Shown piece by piece: positions 3,591 through 43,857 of a stretch of DNA of 64,000 nucleotides; within the stretch, counting starts at the first letter, position 1; each line of letters starts with the position of its first letter. The translations under genes were made by a program, and so were the position numbers. Location: contig LBRD01000001.1 in NCBI GenBank assembly GCA_000991245.1, positions 5,467-69,466 on the forward strand, in the 5' to 3' direction. The notes under the pieces were generated by a model. The model saw only the letters and a list, made by a program, of their open reading frames with translations. It did no database searches and was not told where the DNA came from. This DNA is from Parcubacteria group bacterium GW2011_GWC1_36_108. GTDB taxonomy: Bacteria; Patescibacteriota; Minisyncoccia; Moranbacterales; GWC2-37-73.

Positions 3591-4625
3591 TTATTGCCAA
3601 CTATAAGAATTAAAAGTCCAACTAATCATTGTCTTGATATCCAACCATCGCTGAGAATCATCAAGAACTACTCCGACAATCCTGTGTTTTGAACTAAAAT
3701 CAGAAACCACTGTAAGCAAAGAATAACCAGCAAGTGGAGTAAACCCAGTTTTTGCACCAACAATGTTTGGCATTTGATCAAGCAACTGATCTGTATTTAA
3801 TATAGTATGCTCAATTTTTCCATCCACTGAAGTTACAATAGAATTGCTTGGCAAGCGTGCAAGCTTCCAAATAGTTTCATAGCGAAGTGAATACGCCGCA
3901 ATACGAGCAATGTCATATGCAGAAGAATAACATCCAGCTGCAGCGCCTTCATCATCCAAATCAAGTCCTGAGGACGTACAAAAATTTGTGTCTACCAACC
4001 CTAAATCTTTAGCTTTTTTATTCATAACTTGCACAAAAGCTTCCTCCGAACCAGATACATGCTTTGCAAGTGCAATTGCTGCATCATTAGCACTATTCAT
4101 AACCATCGCTTGAAGTAAACTCTTTGCTGTAATTGTCTCTCCAACTTTAAGACGTGGACTTATGCAATAGCCACTGCGAGGACAACCTATTTTTGTGCCT
4201 TCAGCATATACTGCCTCCTCATCAATAGTTACGGGTTCATCAAGATTTTTAATATTTTCCATCACTAAAACTGCTGTCATAATTTTTGTCAGTGAAGCAA
4301 TCTGCCTATGCGTACGCCCTTCGTTATAATGCAAAATAGTTCCTGTATCGGCATCAATAACTACAGAGGCATGCGCATTCGGCACAACAAGATCATTAGT
4401 TTTAATATCTCTTACTGGTTGATATTGAGGCTCATCCACTGCCTGCGCTTTTAAGGTTACAATTTTCTGCGTTTCAACGCCCGCCACCAATCCACTAATA
4501 CTATTTTCTTGACTACTAACAACATCAGCTTGAACTTGATTTCCATTAATAAAACTTTCCTGCAAAAATAAGAAGGAATTAAGCGGAAAAAAAACTATCA
4601 TCAAAATGGTTGCCCCTATACCCAT
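3591..4625 (-). CDS. D-alanyl-D-alanine carboxypeptidase (S11 serine peptidase, PBP5-like)
   Basis: SxxK (ASLTK), SxN (NSAND) and KTG (KTGFT) active-site triad. N-terminal signal/TM segment. Confidence 0.8.
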   Translation of the reverse strand: MGIGATILMIVFFPLNSFLFLQESFINGNQVQADVVSSQENSISGLVAGVETQKIVTLKAQAVDEPQYQPVRDIKTNDLVVPNAHASVVIDADTGTILHYNEGRTHRQIASLTKIMTAVLVMENIKNLDEPVTIDEEAVYAEGTKIGCPRSGYCISPRLKVGETITAKSLLQAMVMNSANDAAIALAKHVSGSEEAFVQVMNKKAKDLGLVDTNFCTSSGLDLDDEGAAAGCYSSAYDIARIAAYSLRYETIWKLARLPSNSIVTSVDGKIEHTILNTDQLLDQMPNIVGAKTGFTPLAGYSLLTVVSDFSSKHRIVGVVLDDSQRWLDIKTMISWTFNSYSWQ

Positions 4626-5173
4626 TACTCTTTTGAAATTATTGAATTAATTCTCTCATCCACTGAAAGTATACCATACTCTGGAAGATTTTTCACGGAT
4701 TCAATCCCTAATTTTTTAAGAAAATCAAATGTAATTGCATAAACATAACCTCGAGAGTCATTTGGGTTATCATTTCGCTCAATAAGCCCTCGCAGTAACA
4801 AGTTTCGCAGAGTGTAAGCACAATTAACACCTCGAATAGCTTCGATTTCCGTTTTAGAAATTGGACCACGATAAGCAATGATTGAAACGACCTCCATCGC
4901 AGCATTCGATAATGAATCTTGCAGCTCACTTTTAACCAATCCTTCAATAAATTCAGCATTTTCAGGATTTGAAACCAATTGCACTTCTTCGCCCTTAACA
5001 AGCAAGCTGAGCCCACTGCCCGCCAAGGCATATTTTTCGCTCAACAAAGCCAAAGCAGCATCAACTTCTTCAGCCCTAAGCCCCACAATCTTCATCAACT
5101 TCGCCCTCTTAATCGGCTCCCCACTAACAAACAAAATGCTTTCAATAACCCCTTGTAATTTTTCCAATTCCAT
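4625..5173 (-). CDS. scpB: Segregation and condensation protein B
   Basis: Two winged-helix ScpB repeats (ESILFVSGEPIK... ; VVSIIAYRGPISKTEIEAIRGV). Confidence 0.85.
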   Translation of the reverse strand: MELEKLQGVIESILFVSGEPIKRAKLMKIVGLRAEEVDAALALLSEKYALAGSGLSLLVKGEEVQLVSNPENAEFIEGLVKSELQDSLSNAAMEVVSIIAYRGPISKTEIEAIRGVNCAYTLRNLLLRGLIERNDNPNDSRGYVYAITFDFLKKLGIESVKNLPEYGILSVDERINSIISKE

Positions 5174-5220
5174 AGCTTTTAATTTTTTTATTACTTATTG
5201 AAAGTATACCAGCTTTTTAG

Positions 5221-5246
5221 GAATTATGTAATTAGCTACGTAATTC
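5221..5246. terminator. AT-rich hairpin GAATTAtGTA-N6-TACGTAATTC downstream of the 5272-6381 gene
   Basis: Imperfect inverted repeat. A second copy with the same stem sequence is at 43828-43857. Confidence 0.3.
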
Positions 5247-5271
5247 TCACATTTCATTTCTTAAATTTCTT

Positions 5272-6381
5272 CTAATTTTTATTTGAGCTGTCTGATACAT
5301 TTTGTCGCAACATCGCAAATCTCTCCTCCCTCCTTGGTAATAACTTACTAATTGGAGTTGTTGCAAATATTTCCACATAAAGATTTTCAGCTGTCACATT
5401 CTCATTTGTGATGATTTTTTTGGCAAGTTCATTGCAAAACTTTTGAGTTTCCTCATTTTCCTTGTGCTTGATTGTAAGCTCATCATTGATCAGTATATCA
5501 GAAATTTCTTGCTTGTCTTTAGCATTTTTTATTTTCGGCAAAACTCTGCCTATATAACATCTTATTACCTCTTGTATATCTTCAATAATTTTATCGAAAG
5601 TTTGTTCTATCAAGTCAACATCCCTAAGCGTTAATTTTCCACTTTGGGCCAAAAGTTTCAAATCATTATCATCATATGCTCTAGTAAAAAATAATTTATG
5701 ATAGGCAGCCAATGATGGATTTGAGCAATTGATTTTTCTGCCATGAAAATCGATTACTTCTGGCGTTAACCACTCTTTTGGTATAGTGGTTTCATGATGT
5801 CCAATGGGTTCACCGCTATCGTTCCATTTTATAATATGGGTATCGATACAAAAATTTTCTTTACCATATTTTATTGATCCATCTCCATTTATTGCAAAAA
5901 TCATTGGTTGAAATCCTTCCTCATTATTTTGCAGACGTTTTGCGTCAATGCGTTCAAAAATTCTTTTCTTTCCTGGGCGATGACCACTACTTAAAAATAA
6001 TCCGAAACCTTTACTGCCTAAAAATGATTCAACCTTTTCTAGCTCACGGAAATCAATCGATAAATCAATATCTTTATGCACACCTATATATGCACCTCTA
6101 TAAAGTGAAATATTCAAAGCCCCGTCTAATTGCCAATAAAAATCAGCTCCCTGAAACAAGTCTCCCAACTGCTCAAGAGATTTGTCTAGTTCATTCTTTT
6201 CTTCTTCCGTACAAGGTCTTCGTTCAATATCTTTTTCAGATAAGAAATCAGCGCCTTCTTCCCAAAAAGGTTCCTTTTGAAATTTGTTTCTTTCTCTAAT
6301 TTTTGATTGCTCTGCTAGGTCTGGTTGTGCTTTCACAACTTCCGTGGCTTTTCTCATCATTTGTTTCTCAAAATCATTCAT
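5272..6381 (-). CDS. Nucleotidyltransferase-fold protein (minimal NTase motif)
   Basis: LYRGAYIGVHKDIDLSIDF fits the G[SG]x9-13 DhDh pol-beta NTase motif, with more acidic residues downstream. The rest of the protein is unassigned. Preceded by GC-rich 30-mer copy 1. Confidence 0.45.
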   Translation of the reverse strand: MNDFEKQMMRKATEVVKAQPDLAEQSKIRERNKFQKEPFWEEGADFLSEKDIERRPCTEEEKNELDKSLEQLGDLFQGADFYWQLDGALNISLYRGAYIGVHKDIDLSIDFRELEKVESFLGSKGFGLFLSSGHRPGKKRIFERIDAKRLQNNEEGFQPMIFAINGDGSIKYGKENFCIDTHIIKWNDSGEPIGHHETTIPKEWLTPEVIDFHGRKINCSNPSLAAYHKLFFTRAYDDNDLKLLAQSGKLTLRDVDLIEQTFDKIIEDIQEVIRCYIGRVLPKIKNAKDKQEISDILINDELTIKHKENEETQKFCNELAKKIITNENVTAENLYVEIFATTPISKLLPRREERFAMLRQNVSDSSNKN

Positions 6382-6416
6382 ATTATTTCCAATCTGAAAT
6401 TATTATTTATTTGTTA

Positions 6417-7013
6417 TTAACTCACTCTTCCACGGCCGACGTTGAGTGAGTGTTCTTTTTTTTTGAAAAACATTTTTTCGAGATATTTACCGTTATCCAA
6501 TTTCTGTGCCGTGATGACTCTGACAAATTTTTCCGCCGAATACAGGGCAACCAATTCCAAAATAGGCTTCTCGAAAGGATAAGGCGAAACAAAAACACTG
6601 TGCTGCAATTTCCTGAATTTCAAATCCTTCAAGTGATTCCTAAGCACATCGCGGAAAAGTCTATCTTTTTCAGGAATATCAAACATGACGACTCGCCATT
6701 TGCCATCCCATTTCTTCGGCTTCTTAAATTCTATCGACTTTCCGAAGATATTCAGCACGCGGGCTTGCTTCCTGCCTTTTTCAGTTAAAGTCAATTTAAA
6801 AGAACCGTCGGGAAGCTCGATCTCACTTATAAGTTTTTCCTTCGAAAGACTCTTAATGGAGCGATTAAAATTCTGTGGATTTATTTTTACCCATTCTTTT
6901 TTCAATTTTCGCAAAGTACTAAAATATTGTCGAGGCGATGAAGACATACCCAAAGCGACCCCACCTAAAAGCGCCAACAATATTTTCTTTTGAACAGCTC
7001 CTGGCCTATACAT
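6417..7013 (-). CDS. PaaX-family transcriptional regulator (winged helix + PaaX middle domain)
   Basis: WDGKWRVVMFDIPE...HSVFVSP matches the PaaX signature (E. coli PaaX has AWDGKWLLLLSEGLDK...). N-terminal wHTH-like segment. The ORF's last 8 codons read into repeat copy 1. Confidence 0.65.
   Translation of the reverse strand: MYRPGAVQKKILLALLGGVALGMSSSPRQYFSTLRKLKKEWVKINPQNFNRSIKSLSKEKLISEIELPDGSFKLTLTEKGRKQARVLNIFGKSIEFKKPKKWDGKWRVVMFDIPEKDRLFRDVLRNHLKDLKFRKLQHSVFVSPYPFEKPILELVALYSAEKFVRVITAQKLDNGKYLEKMFFKKKEHSLNVGRGRVS
6423..6452. promoter_or_regulatory. GC-rich 30-mer CACTCTTCCACGGCCGACGTTGAGTGAGTG, copy 1 (candidate operator) upstream of the NTase-like gene
   Basis: Exact 30-nt repeat present three times (6423, 7073, 7615). 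It is GC-rich in an AT-rich genome and lies ~40-70 nt upstream of three consecutive start codons. Confidence 0.55.
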
Positions 7014-7072
7014 ACCCCGATTATACTATAAAAAAATAAAGATTTCTATCTTAATAATATCACACGTTGCAT

Positions 7073-7102
7073 CACTCTTCCACGGCCGACGTTGAGTGAG
7101 TG
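7073..7102. promoter_or_regulatory. GC-rich 30-mer, copy 2, upstream of the PaaX-like gene
   Basis: Identical to 6423-6452. A TATAGTATAAT -10-like box lies between it and the PaaX-like start. Confidence 0.55.
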
Positions 7103-7146
7103 ATGGGGTGTTTGATTATTTTTTATTTTGTCTGCCTACTAAGACT

Positions 7147-7169
7147 GGTTACGTAACATGTTACGTAGC
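7147..7169. repeat. TACGTA palindrome GGTTACGTAACATGTTACGTAGC (family copy)
   Basis: Near-perfect palindrome centred on CATG, immediately 3' of the NUDIX gene. Confidence 0.5.
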
Positions 7170-7172
7170 TAA

Positions 7173-7580
7173 TTATAATTCAACTATTAATTTATTTTTT
7201 ATTTCAATTGGTCTCAAATCCAAATCCGAAAGCTCCTCTAACTTTATCCACATTGGTTCATAAATTCCACTATTGCGGTCTGGACTATATTCTTCCCCGT
7301 CACCACTTCCGAGTTTTCCTCCTAATATATCGCATTGATAAAAATATTCTTTCTGTGGTTCATTATCTTTTTTGATAAAATCAAAATCATACATAAGTTC
7401 CAAGACTGAAACATCTAAGCCCAATTCTTCTTTGCATTCTCTTCTTAGTGCTATGGGATGACTTTCTCCATCATCAACCCCGCCGCCGGGAAAAACAAAA
7501 TATGTTTCCCCATTTTTAATTCTCTTAATTACTAACAGTGAATCATCATTTTTAATTATAGCCCTAACCACAATTCTCAT
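7173..7580 (-). CDS. NUDIX hydrolase
   Basis: Nudix box GGGVDDGESHPIALRRECKEELGL. The ATG at 7580 (MRIVV) is the likely start; the ORF track extends to a TTG at 7595. Confidence 0.8.
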   Translation of the reverse strand: MRIVVRAIIKNDDSLLVIKRIKNGETYFVFPGGGVDDGESHPIALRRECKEELGLDVSVLELMYDFDFIKKDNEPQKEYFYQCDILGGKLGSGDGEEYSPDRNSGIYEPMWIKLEELSDLDLRPIEIKNKLIVEL

Positions 7581-7614
7581 ATTTTTTATTTCCAATCTGA
7601 AATTATTATTTATT

Positions 7615-7644
7615 CACTCTTCCACGGCCGACGTTGAGTGAGTG
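7615..7644. promoter_or_regulatory. GC-rich 30-mer, copy 3, upstream of NUDIX. Shares the extra AT-rich 5' segment ATTTCCAATCTGAAATTATTATTTATT with copy 1.
   Basis: Exact repeat. The AT-rich segment (7587-7613) is identical to 6384-6410 and supplies the same spacing to the AUG for the NUDIX and NTase genes. Confidence 0.55.
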
Positions 7645-7660
7645 GTGGTGAAAGATGGGG

Positions 7661-7828
7661 TTAGGATTTGAAGTCGGAGATTATTATGCGCTTTCGTTCG
7701 ATTTTGAAGGTCATTTTTTGGCGCTCTTTAATTCCGAGTTCGGCGACGATTTCGGATGGAATCACGATTGAAAGACTTCGTTTCCCTACTCTTGTAACTT
7801 TGCGAACAAGTTCTTCTTTCTTTTTCAT
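7661..7828 (-). CDS. AbrB/MazE-family (swapped-hairpin) DNA-binding protein, 55 aa
   Basis: Manual translation gives MKKKEELVRKVTRVGKRSLSIVIPSEIVAELGIKERQKMTFKIERKRIIISDFKS. VTRVGKRSLSIVIPSEIVAELGI is a typical AbrB/MazE/SpoVT looped-hinge motif. It is below the ORF-track size cut-off. Confidence 0.5.
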   Translation of the reverse strand: MKKKEELVRKVTRVGKRSLSIVIPSEIVAELGIKERQKMTFKIERKRIIISDFKS

Positions 7829-7884
7829 AACGCTTTGTCATTCCGAACTTAATCCGGAATCTAGATTAATTTTTATTTTTTATT

Positions 7885-7910
7885 TTGCTACGTAGCATGT
7901 TACGTAGCAA
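7885..7910. repeat. TACGTA palindrome TTGCTACGTAGCATGTTACGTAGCAA
   Basis: 26-nt near-perfect palindrome flanked by a T-run and an A-run, 3' of the 1175-aa gene. Confidence 0.5.
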
Positions 7911-7946
7911 AAAACATATTCAACTGTTTTTTTCTATAAATTATTT

Positions 7947-10900
7947 TTATCCATTAACAATTTCTTCGAGTTTCCAAAAACGACTGCCGCCTTTTTCAAT
8001 CAACTCATTTATCAATTCCGAAACTGCCAACTTCGTTGCATCATTTTTGTATAAAATTTCAAAAGCCCTGACGAAATCATTCACATAGATCATATTTCTA
8101 AATGATTCCGATTTTTTGAGACAGTACTCCAATAAATAAGCTTTCAGTATTCTCAATGTTTCTTGCGGTGCTTGCTCAGCAAGAATTGGCACAGACTTGA
8201 TCAAGCCATAATCCCAATCTGTTTCGCCTTTGCTTTTCTCAAGAGTTTCGGCAATGTGATCCGCAAGCCATTTGGAATCGGCAAAAACATTTTGTTCCTT
8301 GTCCACCCAAAAGCCAAAACCAGCAAAAACTTCTTCATTTTCAACATTCTTAAGTGTCCAATCCCAAAGGTCTTTTATTTTTTGCACATCAACTTTGCTC
8401 TCTTTGATGATAGTGGTTGCATTGGCGTTTGAAACAATATGCCTACCAACAAAAGAAATAGATTCTTTTTGCCTTGTCGTGTTTTGATTTTTCCAAAACA
8501 TTTCAAACAACTTTGAGCCTATTTTGAAATCAGGAAAATGAACATACGCAAGTGCCAAATGAGTTGCCAAACCTTCATCAATATTTTTGAAGTATTTTCT
8601 ATCAGTATAAATTTTCGAATCAAGCTGGATTGCTCTTTCATACAAATCCTCAAATTGAACGAACATGTCTCCATAGATATTGGCAGAAAGATACCCTTCC
8701 CAGGCTGCAAGATACAAATCAAATTTATCACCATCTTTTGAAAATATTTTTGGCATCAAAGAAGCAATCCATTTTTTGTCTCTATAATAAAAAGACGGTA
8801 AATAATGTCCAAACAAAAACATGATCGCAAAAGTCTTCTCCCTTTCCAGTGTCTCTTCAAAAATTTCCTTAACTTCTTTGGAAATTTCTTTTTCTGAAGA
8901 ATTTTCTCCCTCACGATAGACAAAAAGCACCAACGCCTGAAAAGCTCTTCCACGAACTGAATTTATGGCAACAAAGAAAGGTTCGCTTTCCTCCTCAGTA
9001 TTCCTTTCAAGACCGGGATTTTGATGTGCGAGGAGATGTTTGATGACAAACAATAATTGTTCGTGATGTTTTGAAAAATCAATTGTTGTTTGAGTTTTTC
9101 CTTCTCCCAGCAATTCTTTGATGACATCAGACATTGAATAGAAAACTGATTTCCAGCCAACAAGCCAGGCATCAAACTCTTGACGCCTATCATTCTCTTC
9201 AGGAAAATTTTCATCCGCATCTGATTTGACAATGTTTTCAATCAAAATCAGCAACTTTCCAAAATCAACATTTTCTTTTTCAACTTTATTTTCTCGCAAA
9301 ACATCATACACACCTTGCAAAAATGAATGAGTGTAGTGCTGATCCAAAACATCTCGATTGAAAAACAGCTCTGCAGAATCAATATATTCCTCAAATCTTT
9401 GAGTGATGTCTTGTTTGAGCAAGTTTCCCATTCCTTCCGCATTCAAAGGATTCATGAAATCTTTTTCGGTGTCCATAGCTTGAAGATTTTTCGGCGACCA
9501 TATTTCACAAAGATTTGAAACTATTTCCGAAACTTTAAATTTTTGCAAATCTTCCAGGGTTATTGGAGCTTTTGCAGAAATGAATCCTGCCATCCCGTTT
9601 GAAACAATGCTTGGCTCCGGCTGAAACTCTTCTGCGATTTTGCCTTCCAACTTTTCCTCGGCTATGTTTTTTTCATTTGCATCAAGCTCAAAAAAAACGC
9701 AGGAAAGAATTTCACGTCCTTTAACTTTGTGCCAAAATTCATCTTTTTCATCCTCTCTTTTTTTGCCGAAATATTCAATGACATTTTTGATAAATTGTCT
9801 TTTATCCTCATTTAAAAGTACAGAAAAACCTCTTTTCAAAGCCTGCTCATATTCAGCTCCGAAAATCAAATCATAACCATTCTTGTTTTCCTCAAAAAAT
9901 CTAAAAAAGGCTTTTTTCAACTCCGCTTGGAAAATTTGAGGATGAAGACTGAGCACAAACAAACTGAAACGCCACATTGAACGACTGAGTGGCAAAGTTT
10001 CAGCATACTCAGCATACATCCTTTTCATTTTTTCTGGCTCGGCATAATTTTTTGCAAACAATCTTTCAATGAGTTTTTTCATCACAGCAGTCAAGTTCTT
10101 CACATCATCGCGATATGAAGAATGCCTGTCATCTTCAAGTTCAAGTGTGAAAAAATCAACATCAAAAAGTCCAAAGCTATCCTCCACCTCAAAAATCTCG
10201 TTTTTGCTTTTTCTTTTTTTATTTGGGACAATTTTTTTCATCACATCCAAAACAAGTTTCAAAGCCTCTTCCAAATTTTCATCGTCAATTTCAGTCAAAT
10301 GTTTGAAAATTTCAATTTCACCAAGATCCCTAAAATAGAACGGGTTTTCCATGCCAAAAGTTTCTTTTTCACTCGCAACTTCTTTAGGGCGGACAGCCAG
10401 AACAGATTCAGTCAAAATCAAGAAATTTTTCCAATCTTTTGCTTCGGCAAGTTTTTCAAGCATTTGCTGATATTCAAAACCGAAATTGTTGAATTTTTTC
10501 ATCAATTGGATCCATTTTTCATCTCTGATCTTCAAAACCATTCTGACAAGTTGCTCTTTTGGCAAGGAACTGCAGATATATGCAAAGCTATTGATGACTT
10601 CCGGATTGAAATTTTCATCGGAAATTGGAACATCGAGCATGAAGTTGACAACACCAGCGGGGTCTTGTTCTGAGATATTCACAAGATATTGCAACTCTGG
10701 CAGAGTGTAGGAATATTGATTTTTGTCATTTACAGTTTTTTTCACTGCATCCAGAAATCCATTTTTGTGCAAAAATTTTAACCAATTTTTATCAGCTTTA
10801 TTAAAAAAATAGTCTTGAGCATCAACATTTGATTTTAAGATCAATTCCAAATCATTCTTTATTTGTTTTGTTTTTCCAGAAAGTTTTTCCTGAATAATTA

Positions 10901-11474
10901 AATCAATAACATTATGAATGTATATTTGCTGGAAACCGAAAGATTTATTGAGAACATTAATAGCATTTTGCATTAATTCTTCAAACTCACTGTGATCATC
11001 TAAGCTAACAAACTCCTTTTCCGAAAGACATCCTAGATTTACACCATGATGCGCAATATCTGACATTTTCCTATATATTATATCAAGATTTTTAAAAGTA
11101 TCTATAAATTCTCTGTTAAATTTTTTGCCTTCACTCTTTTCATCTGTAGCATAACAATTAAATAATTTTATCAAGTTATAATTTACATTTTTACCAATAA
11201 GAGGAAAAAGAACTTCCCTCATGGAATTTGCAGCCTGACTCATCCAATCAGGATTCGATCTACATTCCAATCTAATTGCATAAAAAGCCCCCTTAATCAA
11301 ATCAGAAGGTTTTCTCCCTATATGTTTTTTAGGATAACTATTATAAAAACTATCTATCTTGTTACATAGTTCACTCACATTTGATCCAGGAATAACTGGG
11401 GACAAAACAAAATCACCATAAGAAACAAGGCTTGATGTTTTTTTATTTTCTATATGTTTTTTGTTATTTCCCAT
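7947..11474 (-). CDS. Large (1175 aa) protein of unknown function, predominantly alpha-helical and acidic/lysine-rich. Candidate defence-island protein.
   Basis: Long uninterrupted ORF with consistent codon usage. No Walker A and no obvious catalytic motif. The N-terminal ~150 aa contain RKMSDIAHH (Rx6H, HEPN-like, speculative). Confidence 0.6.
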   Translation of the reverse strand: MGNNKKHIENKKTSSLVSYGDFVLSPVIPGSNVSELCNKIDSFYNSYPKKHIGRKPSDLIKGAFYAIRLECRSNPDWMSQAANSMREVLFPLIGKNVNYNLIKLFNCYATDEKSEGKKFNREFIDTFKNLDIIYRKMSDIAHHGVNLGCLSEKEFVSLDDHSEFEELMQNAINVLNKSFGFQQIYIHNVIDLIIQEKLSGKTKQIKNDLELILKSNVDAQDYFFNKADKNWLKFLHKNGFLDAVKKTVNDKNQYSYTLPELQYLVNISEQDPAGVVNFMLDVPISDENFNPEVINSFAYICSSLPKEQLVRMVLKIRDEKWIQLMKKFNNFGFEYQQMLEKLAEAKDWKNFLILTESVLAVRPKEVASEKETFGMENPFYFRDLGEIEIFKHLTEIDDENLEEALKLVLDVMKKIVPNKKRKSKNEIFEVEDSFGLFDVDFFTLELEDDRHSSYRDDVKNLTAVMKKLIERLFAKNYAEPEKMKRMYAEYAETLPLSRSMWRFSLFVLSLHPQIFQAELKKAFFRFFEENKNGYDLIFGAEYEQALKRGFSVLLNEDKRQFIKNVIEYFGKKREDEKDEFWHKVKGREILSCVFFELDANEKNIAEEKLEGKIAEEFQPEPSIVSNGMAGFISAKAPITLEDLQKFKVSEIVSNLCEIWSPKNLQAMDTEKDFMNPLNAEGMGNLLKQDITQRFEEYIDSAELFFNRDVLDQHYTHSFLQGVYDVLRENKVEKENVDFGKLLILIENIVKSDADENFPEENDRRQEFDAWLVGWKSVFYSMSDVIKELLGEGKTQTTIDFSKHHEQLLFVIKHLLAHQNPGLERNTEEESEPFFVAINSVRGRAFQALVLFVYREGENSSEKEISKEVKEIFEETLEREKTFAIMFLFGHYLPSFYYRDKKWIASLMPKIFSKDGDKFDLYLAAWEGYLSANIYGDMFVQFEDLYERAIQLDSKIYTDRKYFKNIDEGLATHLALAYVHFPDFKIGSKLFEMFWKNQNTTRQKESISFVGRHIVSNANATTIIKESKVDVQKIKDLWDWTLKNVENEEVFAGFGFWVDKEQNVFADSKWLADHIAETLEKSKGETDWDYGLIKSVPILAEQAPQETLRILKAYLLEYCLKKSESFRNMIYVNDFVRAFEILYKNDATKLAVSELINELIEKGGSRFWKLEEIVNG

Positions 11475-11636
11475 TATAATTTTTCGCTAAATCATATAGA
11501 GCTTACGAAATATTTACACACCTAATAATATTGGTACTGTTGGAATCTTTTCCGTACAAAGTTTTATTGAGAGAACCTTCGACTTTGCACCATCCTAAAT
11601 TTATTTCAAAATCTGAAATAAATTTTTATTTTACAT

Positions 11637-11659
11637 TGTTACGTAGCATGTTACATGGT
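11637..11659. repeat. Degenerate TACGTA palindrome (GTTACGTAGCATGTTACATGG)
   Basis: Partial match to the 26-nt palindrome family, 3' of the 11659-12369 gene. Confidence 0.35.
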
Positions 11660-12369
11660 TACTTTTTTTCTGAATATTTTTTCATAAAATATTTTCCCTT
11701 TTCGGTAAGATTAAATTTTTCACTTCCACTACTATTTGGCACTATTTCAATAAGTTCATGTGTGTCACAATAAACTTTTATACCAAGAGGAATATCACTC
11801 GCCCATCTGTTTCCTTCATAATATGTCTGACGAATTGAATCAAAAGAATTAAAATAATTTGAACCTTTAAAAATTTCGTATTCATCATCCCAAGCTTCTT
11901 CTTGGGACTTTTCTGATTTTATTTTCTTTACAGCTGTTTCTTTTTTAAGGACTTTTTCCTCCGCTTCTAATTTTATTTCTTCTGCTTGAAACTTCTTACC
12001 CTCCAATTTAAGGAAATCCTCTTCTTTTTTTAATTTTACAGTTTTAATATCATATTCATACTCCAAAGATTTTAGATAGTATTTTTTTGTTATTTTTGGT
12101 AGCCAAAATACGACTAGGTATGAAAACAAAAATGGAGTAAATAAACTATAAGCAATTGACCACAAATGACTTACGGGATAAAAAGTCAAAAGATAGTCGA
12201 TTTTCAAAACAGATTTTGACTGCATCAAAAGATCAGAATCGACAAAAAAAGTTACATACCAAACCCTCCAATTCCATACCAGCCAAGATGCAATAAATGC
12301 ACCCCAGAATGGACTAACTAATTTTTCGCCCAGGTTTTTCTCTAATGATTTTTTTGCTTCATCAAACAT
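11659..12369 (-). CDS. Hypothetical membrane-anchored protein with coiled-coil (K/E-rich) linker and a C-terminal globular domain
   Basis: 236 aa with two N-terminal TM segments and a KLEGKKFQAEEIKLEAEEKVLKKE coiled-coil. Unknown family. Sits immediately upstream, on the same strand, of the 1175-aa gene. Confidence 0.45.
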   Translation of the reverse strand: MFDEAKKSLEKNLGEKLVSPFWGAFIASWLVWNWRVWYVTFFVDSDLLMQSKSVLKIDYLLTFYPVSHLWSIAYSLFTPFLFSYLVVFWLPKITKKYYLKSLEYEYDIKTVKLKKEEDFLKLEGKKFQAEEIKLEAEEKVLKKETAVKKIKSEKSQEEAWDDEYEIFKGSNYFNSFDSIRQTYYEGNRWASDIPLGIKVYCDTHELIEIVPNSSGSEKFNLTEKGKYFMKKYSEKK

Positions 12370-12372
12370 ATT

Positions 12373-13125
12373 TTAAATTTTTTGAAAAATAAACAGATGC
12401 TCATGCATAATCAAGAGAAAATTGCTTTCTTGAGATCGTTTTACCCAAAAGCCGGTCGCTTTACAGTTGTGTTGTTTTTTAATAATATCCTCTTTCAACA
12501 TAAAACCTTGCTTCAAAAATCTCTCCATAACTTTAAATGCTAAGGGTTGATACATTTTTTCTCTTCTGGTATCCCCCATCAAAATTGCACAATATTTTCC
12601 TTTTTTCAAAACTCGAAATAATTCACTGGCAACTTTTTCAATTTCATCACAAAATTCATCCAGACTATGAATGCCAGATAAATCTTCTTTAATTTTTCCT
12701 TCGCTATATTTTATAATATCAACATATGGTGGATGAGTAAGAACAAAGTCTATTTCTTCATTCTTGATGAAGGTCATATTGCGAGCGTCACATTTTATTA
12801 TTCGTTGCTTGGATTTATTTTCAACCTCAAATTCCAAGGATTTTCTTGTACGTTCCAGTGCTTCTTCATTAACATCAACACAAGTGATATGACGATTTAA
12901 TATTTTTGCCTCTATTGCAGTCGTTCCACCACCAATCATGCAATCAAGAATGTGATCACTTTCTTTTGAATAACGCAGGATTAAATTACGTACCACTTCT
13001 GGCGCCCAGTTTCCACGCCAATCAGATTTATGTGTCGCCCAATTTCCACGACGTGGAAATGACCATACCGTTGTGCATTCTAAATCAAATTCGTCGGGAT
13101 GCAATTTGATATCTTTTTTGTTCAT
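12373..13125 (-). CDS. Site-specific DNA methyltransferase, N4/N6 class (PF01555-like, DpnA/MboIC-like)
   Basis: WSFPRRGNWATH...NWAPEVVRNLI (FP/HPA-FP region), DCMIGGGTT (AdoMet motif I) and LTHPPYVDI (motif IV, a DPPY variant). Confidence 0.8.
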   Translation of the reverse strand: MNKKDIKLHPDEFDLECTTVWSFPRRGNWATHKSDWRGNWAPEVVRNLILRYSKESDHILDCMIGGGTTAIEAKILNRHITCVDVNEEALERTRKSLEFEVENKSKQRIIKCDARNMTFIKNEEIDFVLTHPPYVDIIKYSEGKIKEDLSGIHSLDEFCDEIEKVASELFRVLKKGKYCAILMGDTRREKMYQPLAFKVMERFLKQGFMLKEDIIKKQHNCKATGFWVKRSQESNFLLIMHEHLFIFQKI

Positions 13126-13934
13126 TATTTTATTTCTAAAATATATTTTTTGCTTTTTACTATTTTCATTTCATTACTAAGACCTTTTTTGTTGTGCTCT
13201 AAGTCGTATGCCCAATATTCAATTCCTCGATTATTTGTTTGCGCAAGCAACACCAGTGAATGCACTTTTTTATGCTGTAAAAGTTTTTCCCATTTTAGCA
13301 GTGGAATCAATGCCTGATTAATATCAAAATTTTCCTGATTAAATGAACTCTTCATCTCTACAATAACTACAGTATCTGGCCATTCAAAACCACCATCTAT
13401 TTCAATTTGAGCTTTGGACATGTCTATATCGGAAGTTCCCACAACAAGATGAACAGCAGCTCGTTGACGACCACCCGTAAATAAAATTCCTGCTTTACCC
13501 AATTCGTAGAAATCTGAAATAATACCTGAGTAATTAGCAATTGCCAACAATGTAGTTTCTCCAGGATTAGTATTCCGACTCATTGTATCCCTAACGCCAA
13601 CTATCATACCGTCTGTTAACTTATTTTTTGGTTGAAAAATAATTTCCTCATCTGGTTTTATAAATTTAACGCTCTCAGTATGCAATATAAGTTTCCACTT
13701 TTGACGACTCAAGGGTATCTTAGCTACGCTCCTTTTCTTAACAGCTTTAATTTTTTCACTTCCGTAATGGAAAATACGTATTTCTCCTTGTCCTGATTTT
13801 TTGTATTTTGATAAAAATGGTTCAAGATCTTCCCTGCTATATTCAACTACATCATTTCCATCTGGACGATTATCCCAGAATTTTTTAAGAAACTTCTCCC
13901 AAGCTGCTTCTTTCCATGAATCTTTATTGGCCAT
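13125..13934 (-). CDS. Candidate PD-(D/E)xK nuclease (possible restriction endonuclease)
   Basis: SDIDMS...WPDTVVIVEMK resembles the D...(D/E)xK catalytic core. Its start overlaps the MTase stop (ATGA). No closer family assignment is possible by eye. Confidence 0.4.
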   Translation of the reverse strand: MANKDSWKEAAWEKFLKKFWDNRPDGNDVVEYSREDLEPFLSKYKKSGQGEIRIFHYGSEKIKAVKKRSVAKIPLSRQKWKLILHTESVKFIKPDEEIIFQPKNKLTDGMIVGVRDTMSRNTNPGETTLLAIANYSGIISDFYELGKAGILFTGGRQRAAVHLVVGTSDIDMSKAQIEIDGGFEWPDTVVIVEMKSSFNQENFDINQALIPLLKWEKLLQHKKVHSLVLLAQTNNRGIEYWAYDLEHNKKGLSNEMKIVKSKKYILEIK

Positions 13935-13968
13935 AATATAATTTATTTATTATTTCTTGTTTTGGTAA

Positions 13969-14835
13969 TTACCACGCTAATTCTTCAAGAGATCCCTGCT
14001 CTACCATTTGCAAATTGAAAACATATTCATTGTTGTTATATGTTTCTTCGAGTGGTCTTTTTGTTGTGTGCCAACCAAGTCCATCAGTAACCCAAACAAA
14101 ATCAATGCCCTGTTCTTTCAGTTCTCTATAAAGATCTTTAAACTCTCCACAAACTGCTTTCAATTTTGAACCGCCGCCATTGTAAAAATTAACTTCAAAC
14201 AATTTAATTTTTTTATTTTCAGGATTAAATACGGCGAAGTCAAAACTTCTTTCTGATTTATTTACCTTAACTTCGACACCCCACTTATTGCGAATTTCCG
14301 TAGAGCTTGCCTGCGCTATGTATTCAAAACCTTTTTGTTCACATAATTTGCCAATATGAGATTCAACTATTTTCTCCATTAGTGACCCTCCGCGATTTTT
14401 TCTGCCGTTGCTATCCAGTCCAACTTCAACACCAATAACATAATCAACAAGATTTTTAATTCCCTCTTTTTTAAAAAGGTTTATCAAGCCAGTTCTCTCA
14501 AGAAACATATAATACTTTTCAAAATTATCAACGCCAGCTTCATTATTCTTAAAATCAAAGATTTCAAAACTCCCATCACTTAATTCAAATATCTCTAACT
14601 GCTTTTCCCTTACTGCCAATAAGACTGGAAAAGCCTTAACTACGTCAGAATTAGTTTCGTATAATGTTTTAAATTCCGCCTTCAAATCCTCTTTTCCCAA
14701 AAGATAATTTAATTTATTCAGAATAATTTCCATCTCCGAACTATTTGTAAAAACCTTTTCCCAATTTACAAAATATTCCCATGTTTTAATTGAGTTTTTT
14801 AATGTATCTACTAAATTTTGAAAGTCTTTCTGCAT
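13969..14835 (-). CDS. Type II restriction endonuclease, DpnII/MboI family (GATC-specific family)
   Basis: 288 aa. NLVDYVIGVEVGLDSNGRKNRGGSLMEKIV, EVNFYNGGGSKLK and WVTDGLGW closely match my recollection of R.DpnII (NLVDYVTGVEVGMDTNGRKNRTGDAMENIV, EVNFYSGSGSKL, WITDGQGW). Adjacent to a Dam-class MTase. Confidence 0.65.
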   Translation of the reverse strand: MQKDFQNLVDTLKNSIKTWEYFVNWEKVFTNSSEMEIILNKLNYLLGKEDLKAEFKTLYETNSDVVKAFPVLLAVREKQLEIFELSDGSFEIFDFKNNEAGVDNFEKYYMFLERTGLINLFKKEGIKNLVDYVIGVEVGLDSNGRKNRGGSLMEKIVESHIGKLCEQKGFEYIAQASSTEIRNKWGVEVKVNKSERSFDFAVFNPENKKIKLFEVNFYNGGGSKLKAVCGEFKDLYRELKEQGIDFVWVTDGLGWHTTKRPLEETYNNNEYVFNLQMVEQGSLEELAW

Positions 14836-14849
14836 AAATATAGACTTTT

Positions 14850-15821
14850 TTAATAATTGATTACGACAACCTCCTTAATTTTTCCTCTTCCTGTGCCTTT
14901 TGAATTTATTGAACGTCCAGCGTCAACAGTGTGAATTTTTATTTTTTTGCCTAGTCCAGAATATAATTCATTAATAAGTGGCGTATCAGAATTTGAAAGC
15001 ATAACATAGCAACCTCTCTTGTGGAGTTCCATAAAGGCATCCTTCAATTCTATTTGTTGTTTTTCAAGAAATCCCTCCTTGGTATAACTCGTAAAACTAG
15101 AAGTTGCATTAACAGGATAATAAGGCGGATCAAAATAAACAAAATCTCCTTTTTTTGCTTTTTCTAAAACTTTTCCATAATCCTGATGCAAAATTTTGGT
15201 ATGTTTCATTGCATCATGGGCTTTCCGCAAATTTTCTTCATCACAAATAAGTGGATTTTTATTATCCCCAAATGGAACATTGAATTGACCACTACTATTA
15301 ACACGAAACATCCCATTGAAACAAGTTCTATTCAGATATATAAAACGAGCAGCAACATCAACATCAGAAAGTTTTTTAAAATCTTGCGCACGAACTTTGA
15401 GAAAATATTCTTTATTATTTTTCTTTTGATGTTCTTTTAATTTTTTTATTAATCCTTCAACATCATTTTTAATAACATTATAAGTTGTTACTAATTCGGC
15501 ATTCATATCAGACAAAACAGCTTTTTTTGGCAACAAATCAAAAAACATTGCCCCACCACCGACAAAAGGCTCAAAGTAAGTTGCAGTTTTCGGATCAAAG
15601 TCATAGGGCGGATATAAATCTCTCTCCCTAAATTGTTTGAGTAATTGCCTTTTTCCTCCAACCCACTTTACAAACGGTTTTGGATTTTCATCTTTAAATT
15701 CTTTGTACGCCGATATGATATTTTCAGCTGATGCATTTTTAAGGTTCGACATAAAAACCCGCAGATGAATTGGATGGATATTTAAACTGACGGCTATATC
15801 TTGTATTATTTTTTGTGTCAT
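14850..15821 (-). CDS. DNA adenine methyltransferase, Dam/D12 class (DpnM/MboIA-like)
   Basis: FVKWVGGKRQLL, FEPFVGGGAMFF (motif I) and YFDPPYYP (DPPY). About 40 aa of N-terminal extension. Confidence 0.85.
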   Translation of the reverse strand: MTQKIIQDIAVSLNIHPIHLRVFMSNLKNASAENIISAYKEFKDENPKPFVKWVGGKRQLLKQFRERDLYPPYDFDPKTATYFEPFVGGGAMFFDLLPKKAVLSDMNAELVTTYNVIKNDVEGLIKKLKEHQKKNNKEYFLKVRAQDFKKLSDVDVAARFIYLNRTCFNGMFRVNSSGQFNVPFGDNKNPLICDEENLRKAHDAMKHTKILHQDYGKVLEKAKKGDFVYFDPPYYPVNATSSFTSYTKEGFLEKQQIELKDAFMELHKRGCYVMLSNSDTPLINELYSGLGKKIKIHTVDAGRSINSKGTGRGKIKEVVVINY

Positions 15822-15909
15822 ATTTTTATTTTAAACTCTTACAGTGATATTATATCATTCAATAGGTTCGAACACAACTGTGGATAACTTATTTTTCAAA
15901 AATAAAACC

Positions 15910-15935
15910 TTGTTACGTAACATGCTACGTAACAA
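15910..15935. repeat. TACGTA palindrome TTGTTACGTAACATGCTACGTAACAA
   Basis: 26-nt near-perfect palindrome between the Zn-ribbon gene and the Dam MTase. Confidence 0.5.
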
Positions 15936-16029
15936 CATCAATTGACTTATGCCCCATTATCTCATAATCCCCCCACTTAATCAATTAAATAAAACAAAGA
16001 AAAGACCGGCTGAATTGCCAGTCTTTTGC

Positions 16030-16218
16030 CTATTTTCTACCTCCTCTTTTTTCAACCTCCCCATCTTTCAATTCTTTGCCAGACCAGCGTCCAAAACGTG
16101 CGCCACAATCTTGGCAGACAATTTCACTCACGCCGTCATAATACTCAGGATGCATCATGTCATATTCCACCATGATAATATTTTCACTTCCGCACTTTTT
16201 ACATTTTTCGTTTTCCAT
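16030..16218 (-). CDS. Small zinc-ribbon protein (62 aa)
   Basis: CKKCGS...CQDCGARF: two CxxC pairs. Lysine/Glu-rich tail. Confidence 0.5.
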   Translation of the reverse strand: MENEKCKKCGSENIIMVEYDMMHPEYYDGVSEIVCQDCGARFGRWSGKELKDGEVEKRGGRK

Positions 16219-16231
16219 ATTATTTTCAATT

Positions 16232-17296
16232 TTATTTTTTCACCATCCTATATCTTGTTGCCCTTCCCATCCCAATGCGCCTGATCAGTCCATGTTCAAG
16301 CAATCTTGCCACGGATTTTTTTATGGTTGGCAATGGAATGTCGGCCAAGTTTTTTTTGATTTCAGCCACGCCCAATTCAACCTCAACATTGCCAAACAAA
16401 TCAAAAATTTTCTTTTGCACCTCAGAAAGCAAACTTTCTGGATCATTTCCTTTGAGCAAGTCTATCGCTTTTTTTGATTGAATCAAGATGCAGTCCAAGA
16501 AAAAATTAATCCACGGATCAATATTCTCATCAGTAGTCTTGTGATTTTTTTGTGTTTCCCTTAGAGCCAAATAGTATTCCGACTGTTTATCTTCAATGAT
16601 TTCTTCCAGGGAAACATATGGGACATGCAAATATCCAGCCTGGAGCATCATAAGATTTGTCAATGCGCGAGAAAGTCGCCCATTCCCATCTTCAAATGGA
16701 TGGATTGCGAGAAATTCAAAAATGAAATTTGCAATCATCACCAGAGGATGCATTTCTTTTTTTCCCTGATTTTCCTTGAGCCACTCCAAAGCATCATCCA
16801 TCTCTTTTTTCACAAGCCATGGAGGCGTTGGATTGAAAAGAATTTTCTTAACTTCTCCATTTTGAACAATTGCAACTGTGTTTTCTTTCTTTTTGTATTT
16901 TCCTCTATGCAATTTGTCTTTTTCAGAAAACTCAAGCATGATTTCATGGAGTTGCAAAATTCTGTTTTCAGTTATTTTCAGCGAATCATGATGATCAAAA
17001 ATTCTTCCAAGCAAATCAGCATAACCAGCAACTTCCTGCTCATCTCTGTTTTTTGGAACCAGCTGTTTTATGCCACGCAAAAATCTGTCCACTTGCTGGT
17101 CAGTCATTTTTGAACCCTCAATACGCGTGGATGATCCCGTGCTAGTGATAATCACTGAACGCTTAAGTTGACCCAATATTCTTGGATTCAATGCTAGTGA
17201 TCCCTTCCATTGCCCTTTCATTTCATCAATCTTGGTAATTTTGAGCAAAATCTCATTGGAAAGCCTTATTCTTTTGTCTAGTCTGTCTTTTTTCAT
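16232..17296 (-). CDS. Fic family protein (class II, intramolecular inhibitory motif) with C-terminal winged helix
   Basis: Fic motif HPFEDGNGRLSRA. STRIEGS inhibitory (S/T)xxxE(G/N) motif upstream. C-terminal HTH-like tail. Confidence 0.85.
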   Translation of the reverse strand: MKKDRLDKRIRLSNEILLKITKIDEMKGQWKGSLALNPRILGQLKRSVIITSTGSSTRIEGSKMTDQQVDRFLRGIKQLVPKNRDEQEVAGYADLLGRIFDHHDSLKITENRILQLHEIMLEFSEKDKLHRGKYKKKENTVAIVQNGEVKKILFNPTPPWLVKKEMDDALEWLKENQGKKEMHPLVMIANFIFEFLAIHPFEDGNGRLSRALTNLMMLQAGYLHVPYVSLEEIIEDKQSEYYLALRETQKNHKTTDENIDPWINFFLDCILIQSKKAIDLLKGNDPESLLSEVQKKIFDLFGNVEVELGVAEIKKNLADIPLPTIKKSVARLLEHGLIRRIGMGRATRYRMVKK

Positions 17297-17524
17297 ATAT
17301 ATTCAGATATATCCAATTGTATACGATAATATCCATAAAGTCAAGCTTTTGCTGTGCACATTTTTTTGATTTTTTGTGCATAATTGTCAAGATGTACACA
17401 ATATGTGTGCTAAGTTCTACTTTATGCTCAAATAAGCCATTTTTGTGACAATCACATGATCAATTACTTCAATTCCCAGAATCTTCCCTGCTTCAATAAG
17501 CTGCTTAATAATTGCAAGAATAAA

Positions 17525-18244
17525 TTACGTAATACTTTTCACATCCTTATGTCTCATTTTTATTTCGGAAAACAACTCCCCCTGCTCAACATGAATAATT
17601 CGTTGTTTTACTAATTCAAGCATTGCAAGAAATGAAACTACTACTTCAACCTTATCTTTTGCATTTGCAACGAGCTCGGCAAAGGATGTTTGCACACGCT
17701 CTCGCAGGGTATCTTGCAAATGAATAATTCTATCTTCCAGAGTTAAAACTTCTTTTACCATTTCTTCTTCCAGTTTTTCTACTATAGGAATTTCTCCAAG
17801 CACCTTGTTAAAAGCTTTTTGCAAATCGCTAGCTACAATGTTTTCCGGTGGATAAAAAACCATTCCTATCCCCAAGAATCCTTCACGCGAAAAACTTGAC
17901 TTGGGAGAATCAAAAACGAGAGCAAGTTTTGCTGAAGCGTCTTTAAATTTTTTATACTCTGCCAATTGATATTCCAAATCTTTAATCTCTTCCTCCTCTT
18001 CTTCAGTAAATTCCAACATCGGAAGCAAGGCTTTGGATTTGATCAAAATAAGTCTTGCAGCCACTGACAAAAAATCAGCCAGATGAGCAAGCGTGATGTC
18101 TTTGGCCTCAGCAATATAGGCCAGATATTGATCTGCAATTTTCGCCAAACTTACTCGAGTAATATCAAGTTTTTCCTGTTCCGTCAGTTGCAAAAGCAAA
18201 TCCAGCGGCCCTTCAAATTGTTCGAGTTTAAAATGATAAGACAT
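17525..18244 (-). CDS. scpA: Segregation and condensation protein A (kleisin)
   Basis: FEGPLDLLLQLTEQEKLDITRVSLAKIADQYLAYI N-terminal ScpA signature. Start taken at MSYHFKLEQF. Confidence 0.8.
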   Translation of the reverse strand: MSYHFKLEQFEGPLDLLLQLTEQEKLDITRVSLAKIADQYLAYIAEAKDITLAHLADFLSVAARLILIKSKALLPMLEFTEEEEEEIKDLEYQLAEYKKFKDASAKLALVFDSPKSSFSREGFLGIGMVFYPPENIVASDLQKAFNKVLGEIPIVEKLEEEMVKEVLTLEDRIIHLQDTLRERVQTSFAELVANAKDKVEVVVSFLAMLELVKQRIIHVEQGELFSEIKMRHKDVKSIT

Positions 18245-18283
18245 AATAATTTCAATAATCAATAACAACAATACAAAAACAAA

Positions 18284-43806: not shown

Positions 43807-43827
43807 GGACAACACCGATAAAAAAAG

Positions 43828-43857
43828 AATTACGTATTTAGTTACGTAATTCTTTTT
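43828..43857. terminator. Hairpin AAGAATTACGTA-tttagt-TACGTAATTCTT
   Basis: 12-bp AT-rich inverted repeat immediately 3' of 43567-43806, followed by a T-run. Same stem sequence as 5221-5246. Confidence 0.45.

Follow-up and report, generated by a model that had tools for sequence, protein, structure and literature searches.

A candidate restriction-coupled effector-plus-sensor defence gene, with a small helical domain fused to a long predicted alpha-solenoid, in a Moranbacteria genome

Two neighbouring genes on contig LBRD01000001.1 of Parcubacteria group bacterium GW2011_GWC1_36_108 raise the question of where a functional unit begins and ends in this part of the genome, and what such a unit might do. 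Within the 64,000 nt that were analysed (positions 5,467 to 69,466 of the contig, hereafter called the window and numbered from its first letter), a gene at 11659..12369 on the minus strand encodes a membrane/charged-helix protein of 236 amino acids, and a second gene at 7947..11474, likewise on the minus strand, encodes a protein of 1175 amino acids. The first-pass annotation, which had both open reading frames (ORFs) right in position and length, had read them as a two-gene cassette and had added a hint of a HEPN motif in the larger protein; this proved largely wrong in its specifics, yet it pointed to a gene that is worth testing. Our best reading, to which we give an even chance, is that the large gene is an uncharacterised restriction-coupled effector-plus-sensor defence gene in its complete single-gene (fused) form.

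The proposal that the membrane coiled-coil protein and the 1175-residue protein form a two-gene anti-phage cassette draws on their position, as the genes are immediate neighbours of the same orientation, separated by 184 nt (1 nt less than initially counted) and situated in a defence-type island. Moreover, the gene order of the window is identical in all 23 contigs that carry an identical small protein; however, these contigs add no independent evidence, because they represent one population. When co-occurrence was checked by tblastn, the small protein was absent from 84 of 84 loci encoding relatives of the large protein (with up to 10 kb of flank each), and the large protein was absent from all 5 independent contexts in which relatives of the small protein were found. 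Across a total of 87 loci, the small protein matched in L006 and L007 only, both of which had been retrieved via the small protein itself. Furthermore, a related Moranbacteria genome (L093) carries scpA (83% identical), two unrelated genes, a Dam methyltransferase (MTase; 98%), a gene for 176 amino acids, an N4/N6 MTase (97%), the small gene (78%) and a gene for 200 amino acids, and it lacks the large gene. In L093 as in the window, the small gene starts 3 nt past the stop codon of the upstream MTase gene, and in this lineage its companion is therefore the MTase gene and not the large gene. The small protein is also unrelated to the true partner families described below, and the corresponding partner domain is already fused into the large gene. 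Its candidacy as a divergent, membrane-anchored partner of the large protein was rejected, with an hhalign probability of <1% against any partner family. The small gene is not part of the large-gene unit, and we regard the two-gene cassette as very improbable.

The first description of the small protein as membrane-anchored was borne out: it has a strong hydrophobic segment at residues 69-94, an aromatic-rich hydrophobic segment at residues ~19-43, and a K/E-rich region at residues 96-160, in which 51% of residues are charged. It matches four PHROG families without known function (best 1.1e-11), and despite these profile matches no tblastn match was obtained in INPHARED phage genomes; PADLOC-DB 2.0 returned zero families. 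The small protein may be a stand-alone accessory or defence-island gene product. Genes adjoining its relatives encode a KAP NTPase, a NERD protein (after an MmeI-like MTase), a DEAD helicase and a DUF4145 protein (L094:1157-2992, L007:4207-4938, L006:1261-2802, and a contig of JGI 3300075153).

The large protein contains no Walker A motif, as had been noted before, and no transmembrane or other hydrophobic segment. It has no match in Pfam, PADLOC-DB 2.0, PHROGs, NCBIfam (June 2026) or among PDB sequences, the latter having been searched by both phmmer and profile. As far as sequence comparison can tell, the family is unnamed in the curated libraries examined and is without a related solved structure. 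Nevertheless, the family is large: at least 128 close homologues were found, and an exhaustive profile search returned 3007 representatives of 50%-identity clusters at E<=1e-3, 762 of them at E<=1e-30. Its members come mainly from Patescibacteria, with further ones from Caldilineaceae, Omnitrophota, Nitrospira, Aminicenantes, Verrucomicrobia and bins labelled Gammaproteobacteria.

The composition of the unit emerges from the comparison of these homologues, which fall into two length classes of ~1150-1200 and ~1000 amino acids, the shorter of which is devoid of the first ~180 residues. ORFs were called in the 84 large-protein loci and their neighbours clustered, and the anatomy was counted in the 63 loci whose sequence reaches at least 3.5 kb upstream. 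The fused form, to which the gene of the window belongs, accounts for 18 of these 63 loci, and the form remained unassigned in 7. In the split forms (38/63), a separate gene of 115-373 amino acids (mostly 170-350) on the same strand precedes the ~1000-residue core, often with a 4-nt overlap. The partners encoded by these separate genes belong to cluster c0, which is homologous to residues 1-180 of the window's protein (16/63 loci), to clusters c4 and c6 (7/63 each), or to the rarer clusters c28 (4/63), c32 (3/63) and c86 (1/63). Comparison by hhalign linked c0 with c6 (97.8% probability, E 8e-13), c0 with c4 (94.5%, E 8e-8) and c4 with c6 (98.3%, E 1e-14), and the three clusters share the motifs GA, NP[DE]W, SLRE and HH; at the level of profile similarity, c0, c4 and c6 are one superfamily. 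Cluster c86 is a CHAT protease (PF12770, 1.7e-7), and cluster c28 has a hydrophobic anchor at its N-terminus.

A metagenome scan that was seeded with the N-domain motif alone yielded 80 loci, and in all 76 of those with enough downstream sequence, the core follows 10-433 nt downstream of the N-domain; the conserved unit is therefore the N-terminal module plus the core, which are fused in the window. Furthermore, the two modules differ in their affinities. The relative P0008 shares 64% identity with the large protein in the core and 31% in the N-domain, and P0013 shares 45% and 55%, respectively, whereas the closest cores of all (72-87% identical, e.g., L008) belong to split forms with a c32-type partner. 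Judged by these identities, modules are shuffled among relatives. We are highly confident of the architecture itself, i.e., a two-module unit of a small module and a long solenoid.

Variants of the small module were also seen. In two relatives (L031:470-1534 and L058:8866-9912), a CHAT (caspase-like) protease replaces the helical domain upstream of the core, and some members have two tandem N-domains before the solenoid (L001:8001-11972, P0023/P0031 type; P0269). Moreover, an N-terminal hydrophobic, probably membrane-spanning segment is present in the partners L040:9291-10007, L076:7259-7966, L015:9384-9995, L021:9381-9995, L011:7555-8400 and L064:6480-7319. Predicted segments of this kind suggest that some versions of the system are membrane-anchored.

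In the window, the N-terminal module corresponds to a helical domain at 10890..11402 on the minus strand (residues ~25-195), as delimited by alignments and an AlphaFold model, in which it forms an all-helical bundle (predicted local distance difference test, pLDDT, 79.6). Alignments of relatives revealed D41, S57, G62, N74, D76, S84, R86, H142 and H143 as invariant and E87, Q183 and H187 as nearly so, and the invariant polar cluster argues for a putative catalytic or ligand-binding site. The motif RKMSDIAHH, in which an Rx6H spacing reminiscent of HEPN RNases had been seen, is indeed present at residues 135-143. However, the R135 column holds G, N, K or Y in relatives; within the motif, invariance is limited to H142 and H143, and the arginine that is invariant in the domain is R86, 56 residues upstream. 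The Rx6H-based HEPN reading thus fails on its defining motif, the arginine of which is not conserved.

A different relationship is indicated by PF18165 (pP_pnuc_1, "Predicted pPIWI-associating nuclease"), which is the sole Pfam family that recurs for the N-domain family. It is matched by 13 of 30 homologous c0-type domains at E<=1 (best E 1e-5), and weakly by 4 of 27 c4, c6 and other partners, with the matches spanning the GA...NPDW...SLRE region. In P0269, the match reaches 26.6 bits against a gathering cut-off of 26.3, exactly over the SDML..GA..NPD..QAAHSIREI stretch; the window's own N-domain alone has no PF18165 match at E<=1, and a word-indexed homology search with this domain alone retrieved just 3 proteins. 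These matches suggest that the N-domain is distantly related to PF18165. Like the N-domain family, PF18165 is a small all-helical domain attached to a large partner in conflict-type loci. Unlike it, the subfamily described here always precedes the solenoid (76/76 loci), and no PIWI or Argonaute gene was found among the Pfam-annotated neighbours, bearing in mind that not every neighbour of every locus was scanned.

The remainder of the protein, residues ~196-1175 (7950..10889 on the minus strand), is predicted by AlphaFold to be a HEAT/ARM-type alpha-solenoid of paired helices (pLDDT 87.8). The initial statement that the protein has no repeat architecture is thus overturned at the structural level; in sequence, Pfam HEAT/ARM repeat models do not match, since the protein has no Pfam family at E<=0.01. 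The core contains no catalytic signature. Conservation is strongest in its C-terminal half (AINSVRGRAF, FGHYLP, AAWEGYL, HLALA and FGFW), which points to a conserved interaction or active surface there. Comparison with the eukaryotic HEAT/ARM solenoids CAND1, importin-beta, PP2A-A, HUWE1/Tom1 and condensin Ycs4 gave template modelling (TM) scores of ~0.2 at 8-12% identity, and as far as the model goes, the likeness is one of fold class and not of homology.

With the unit defined, its genomic surroundings can be compared across the family. Large enzymes of restriction-modification (RM) type, for which Type IIG, HKD-SNF2, Type ISP-like, Type III Res and HsdM proteins were counted, are encoded within 6 kb upstream of the solenoid in 19 of 56 loci, and 25 of the 29 genes concerned share its strand; within 6 kb downstream, the count is 0 of 49 loci (Fisher p 1.2e-6). 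Adding N4/N6 MTases gave 28 of 56 loci upstream versus 2 of 49 downstream (p 6.6e-8), whereas serine recombinases, which served as a control for island content, showed no polarity (3/56 upstream versus 5/49 downstream). In 15 of 63 loci, the immediate upstream neighbour is a same-strand gene of RM type, and the solenoid gene often overlaps the RM gene that precedes it. Type IIG enzymes that combine MTase and restriction endonuclease (REase) were found in 16 loci and HKD-SNF2 helicases in nine, in seven of which the HKD-SNF2 gene lies upstream of the IIG gene; the other upstream types are a Type ISP-like enzyme, Type III Res and Mod, and HsdM. The unit usually closes restriction-type operons at their 3' end and is carried by mobile DNA. 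The large gene of the window, which lies downstream of two RM modules on the same strand, matches this pattern. That the coupling is polar and extends to diverse RM types suggests co-transcription and a role behind restriction, and not a fit to one enzyme.

The same polarity would be expected if the unit were a non-suicidal accessory subunit of RM systems, with the solenoid docking on or regulating the upstream enzyme or processing its DNA products. The strictly polar same-strand position at the 3' end of RM operons, where the stop codon of one gene often overlaps the start codon of the next, is in keeping with such a subunit, as are the nine loci with an HKD-SNF2 gene, seven of which are ordered HKD-SNF2, IIG MTase-REase, solenoid, and the weak resemblance of the upstream proteins to DISARM DrmD and DrmMI. 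However, the upstream types are heterogeneous (IIG, ISP-like, III and I, with plain Type II in the window), and a specific protein-protein fit is therefore unlikely. Moreover, an upstream RM gene is missing in approximately half of the loci, and the exchange of the N-terminal module for a CHAT protease is typical of effector exchange. We thus consider an accessory subunit unlikely.

The resemblance to class 1 DISARM and to BREX concerns the nine related loci just mentioned, in which the upstream HKD-SNF2 helicase matches the PADLOC models DrmD (1.7e-34) and BrxHI (3e-25) and the IIG-type methylase matches DrmMI (7e-33) and PglX (5e-24). However, DrmA, DrmB, PglZ, BrxC and BrxL are absent from these loci, and the best PADLOC label of the methylase is that of an ordinary Type IIG enzyme (2.6e-268). 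Furthermore, the window has none of these genes, and the solenoid matches no DISARM or BREX model.

Several observations point to carriage of the family on mobile DNA. Serine recombinases (15/63 loci), ParB-MTases and terminases are encoded near family loci, four IMG/VR contigs carry family members, and a distant homologue is found on a Legionella plasmid. The latter, annotated as hypothetical, is encoded at 11428-13797 of the Legionella pneumophila plasmid record NZ_CP016871.1 (L088) and shares 23% identity over the C-terminal 540 residues; the plasmids that bear it are conjugative, one IS3-family transposase gene immediately precedes it, and genes for IS256-family transposases flank it on either side. 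The protein could accordingly serve the mobile element itself through anti-defence, the exclusion of competing elements or element maintenance, and the recombinases, ParB-MTases and terminases nearby, as well as the occurrence on IMG/VR contigs and a conjugative plasmid, would suit this. In contrast, the location is stable and chromosomal, with conserved synteny, in Caldilineaceae, and the island of the window is chromosomal as well, with no element genes among the ORFs tested. Mobile context as such does not discriminate between a role for the element and one for the host, because elements commonly carry defences that protect their host. Overall, we judge a role in the service of the element to be improbable.

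Among characterised systems, the closest likeness in layout is to DSR2, a protein of ~1000-1200 amino acids with a small N-terminal effector-type domain (SIR2), a long alpha-solenoid and no NTPase. The large protein shares this layout, and DSR2 could serve as a functional analogue for the combination of an effector with a repeat sensor. It differs in that the large protein has no SIR2 match in Pfam or PADLOC and that its N-domain is predicted to be a helical bundle. A second likeness is to nucleases of the PrrC/RloC type, which are embedded in restriction operons, and to HEPN proteins linked to RM systems. As in these, a putative nuclease module would be located within or at the end of an RM operon, and by analogy this suggests backup firing when restriction fails. 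However, the large protein contains neither an ABC-ATPase domain nor a conserved Rx4-6H motif, it has a solenoid as its partner module, and the RM types upstream of it vary.

Taking these lines together, we think that a role of the large gene in defence is somewhat more probable than not. As the unit is usually the last member of RM operons carried by mobile DNA, it would form a second line of defence behind restriction. In the mechanism that we propose, sensing or docking would fall to the solenoid. Its ligand may be a trigger that stems from the phage or from restriction, or else a restriction enzyme that has been inhibited; what it senses might be made by the phage or signal that restriction has failed. 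The N-domain would then act as the effector, most likely as a nuclease, and damage nucleic acid of the invader or of the host. This division of labour, with a sensing solenoid, an acting N-domain and nuclease chemistry, is put forward tentatively, and we rather doubt that it will hold in all three parts. Somewhat less doubtful, though still short of an even chance, is the broader proposal of a new and widespread anti-phage family (~3,000 clusters at 50% identity), in which an exchangeable effector, either a new helical nuclease-like domain or a CHAT protease, is combined with a ~1000-residue solenoid, and which would stand guard or serve as a backup once restriction has been escaped or blocked.

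Several points weigh against this interpretation. No validated defence protein proved homologous to the large protein (zero families in PADLOC 2.0), and the link to PF18165 is weak, with a best match barely above the cut-off and a Pfam family that is itself a prediction; the term nuclease, as applied to the N-domain, derives from the name of this family. Moreover, as the C-terminal half of the solenoid is the most conserved part, the key activity could reside there rather than in the N-domain. Regarding the coupling to restriction, the roughly half of all loci without an upstream RM gene have to be considered here as well, and in the window the large gene is separated from the RM genes by the membrane-protein gene and the 184-nt spacer. 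Searches of the available literature on the large-protein family, PF18165 and HEAT-repeat defence linked to RM yielded no relevant paper. What appears to be new is the family with its N-domain and its directional tie to RM operons, whereas the logic of an effector plus a repeat sensor in a defence island is already known.

The island in which the large gene resides also bears on a possible housekeeping function. An accessory block of ~12.3 kb (window 5173-17525, i.e., ~5.2-17.5 kb) lies between scpA (17525-18271) and scpB (4625-5173). These two genes are usually adjacent, and the block can be read as an insertion between them. As the gene content of the scpA-linked site differs in L093, the site is a variable hot spot, and the reading of the region as a variable island of defence type is supported. 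The flanking scpA and scpB, together with fold matches to condensin HEAT proteins, had suggested that the large protein might be a HEAT-repeat partner of SMC-ScpAB. However, the fold matches are generic for HEAT/ARM proteins (TM ~0.2), the scpA-linked island of L093 lacks the large gene, ScpA and ScpB occur in no Pfam-annotated locus and form no recurrent neighbour cluster, and the distribution of the family is patchy and mobile, with module shuffling. Such a housekeeping role is extremely improbable.

Within the island, the two Type II RM modules upstream of the large gene (12373..15821, minus strand) were assigned by Pfam and PADLOC and consist of a Dam-like MTase (14850-15821), a DpnII REase (13969-14835), a DUF6997 REase (13125-13934) and an N4/N6 MTase (12373-13125), all on the minus strand. 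Comparison of this region with L093:1877-4157 revealed that both MTases are kept there, with no tblastn match to the DpnII or the DUF6997 REase; the L093 methylases may be orphans, left behind when the REase genes were lost. Downstream of the large gene follow a MazE/AbrB-like antitoxin-type ORF of 55 amino acids without an obvious toxin (7661-7828; PF04014, 3.5e-6), a NUDIX gene (7173-7595; PADLOC candidate PDC-S07, 8.9e-16) and a gene for a PaaX-like protein with a Cas2-like central domain (6417-7013; PF20803, 1.2e-22, with weak Cas2 matches), adjoined by a gene for a 369-residue protein with a weak nucleotidyltransferase match. The placement of the large gene between RM genes and a module of regulator-, nucleotidyltransferase- and NUDIX-like genes was thus described correctly. 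The MazE-like gene was considered as a partner of the large gene and rejected, as downstream neighbours are not conserved across loci. At the start of the island, a gene for a Fic/DOC-domain protein of 354 amino acids (16232-17296; PF02661, 6.8e-18) is followed by a cysteine-rich ORF of 62 amino acids (~16030-16217), by eye likely a Zn-ribbon, with its own terminator; together, the two may be a Fic-type defence or toxin module. Furthermore, a G+C-rich inverted repeat, CACCACCACTCACTCAACGTCGGCCGTGGAAGAGTGA, is present at ~7612-7652 of the window and at ~4965-5005 of L093, in differing intergenic positions.

The island also contains palindromes with TACGTA boxes, which had been described as 26-nt copies just downstream of each of the two genes and as brackets of the supposed cassette. 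TACGTA occurs 14 times in the window against an expectation of 3.95, a number that none of 100 shuffles reached. The copy directly downstream of the large gene (7883..7912), TTTTGCTACGTA-GCATGT-TACGTAGCAAAA, has perfect 12-nt inverted arms around a 6-nt spacer; the copy between the small and the large gene (11628..11658, ~11640; originally placed at 11637) turned out to be degenerate, with one intact TACGTA box. Three near-identical copies of the GYTACGTARCATGYTACGTARC type are located at 7148-7169, 7887 and 15912-15933, and degenerate copies with one or two boxes at 11640, 5237 and 17526, the general geometry being inverted arms of 10-12 nt around a 6-nt spacer. Each of these palindromes is found between genes or at the end of one, and together they mark off blocks of genes within the island. 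Among 178 loci (2.17 Mb), TACGTA-N6-TACGTA was found in the window's own population, in L093 (sites at 397, 1766 and 4904) and in L008 (4189) only, and none was present in 87 unrelated loci. As the palindrome is confined to this one Moranbacteria lineage, it is not a feature of the large-gene family, and its inclusion in the gene family was rejected on this ground.

A role of the 7883-7912 copy as terminator of the large gene was likewise rejected, as the gene strand has a T-tract before and an A-tract after the hairpin; in a terminator scan, 7146 and 15935 were the only palindrome copies listed as terminator-like. Outside the island, a GAATTACGTA-ACTAAA-TACGTAATTC hairpin with the same TACGTA arms (43825-43855) lies between convergent ORFs in an arrangement of A-tract, hairpin and T-tract, and judged by its sequence this copy, at 43831, looks like an ordinary bidirectional terminator. 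Regarding the other copies, their arms of 10-12 nt around a 6-nt spacer fit the geometry of a site-specific recombination core site of the Xer/dif or cassette att kind. In L093 the small gene is followed by a single site, in place of which the window has the degenerate site, the large gene and the full site; the outer flanks match in this one comparison, with the right flank of 7883-7912 being that of the single site in L093. The arrangement looks like that expected from insertion of a large-gene cassette at a palindrome with duplication of the site, as far as one comparison goes. Among 30 window ORFs scanned with Pfam, no recombinase acting on the palindromes was found, and they could equally well be recombination sites or operators for a local regulator.

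For further work, the unit of study is corrected from the gene pair to 7947-11474, either alone or together with the upstream RM genes. The defence hypothesis is directly testable, because the family is big, the structure prediction confident and the number of invariant residues (R86, H142 and H143) small. The genomes of Patescibacteria, also known as the candidate phyla radiation, are tiny, and apart from restriction-modification few defence systems have been recognised in them. If the hypothesis is true, the family would add a new layer of immunity in these bacteria, tied physically and directionally to restriction operons, and would provide a concrete case of bacteria backing up their restriction enzymes.

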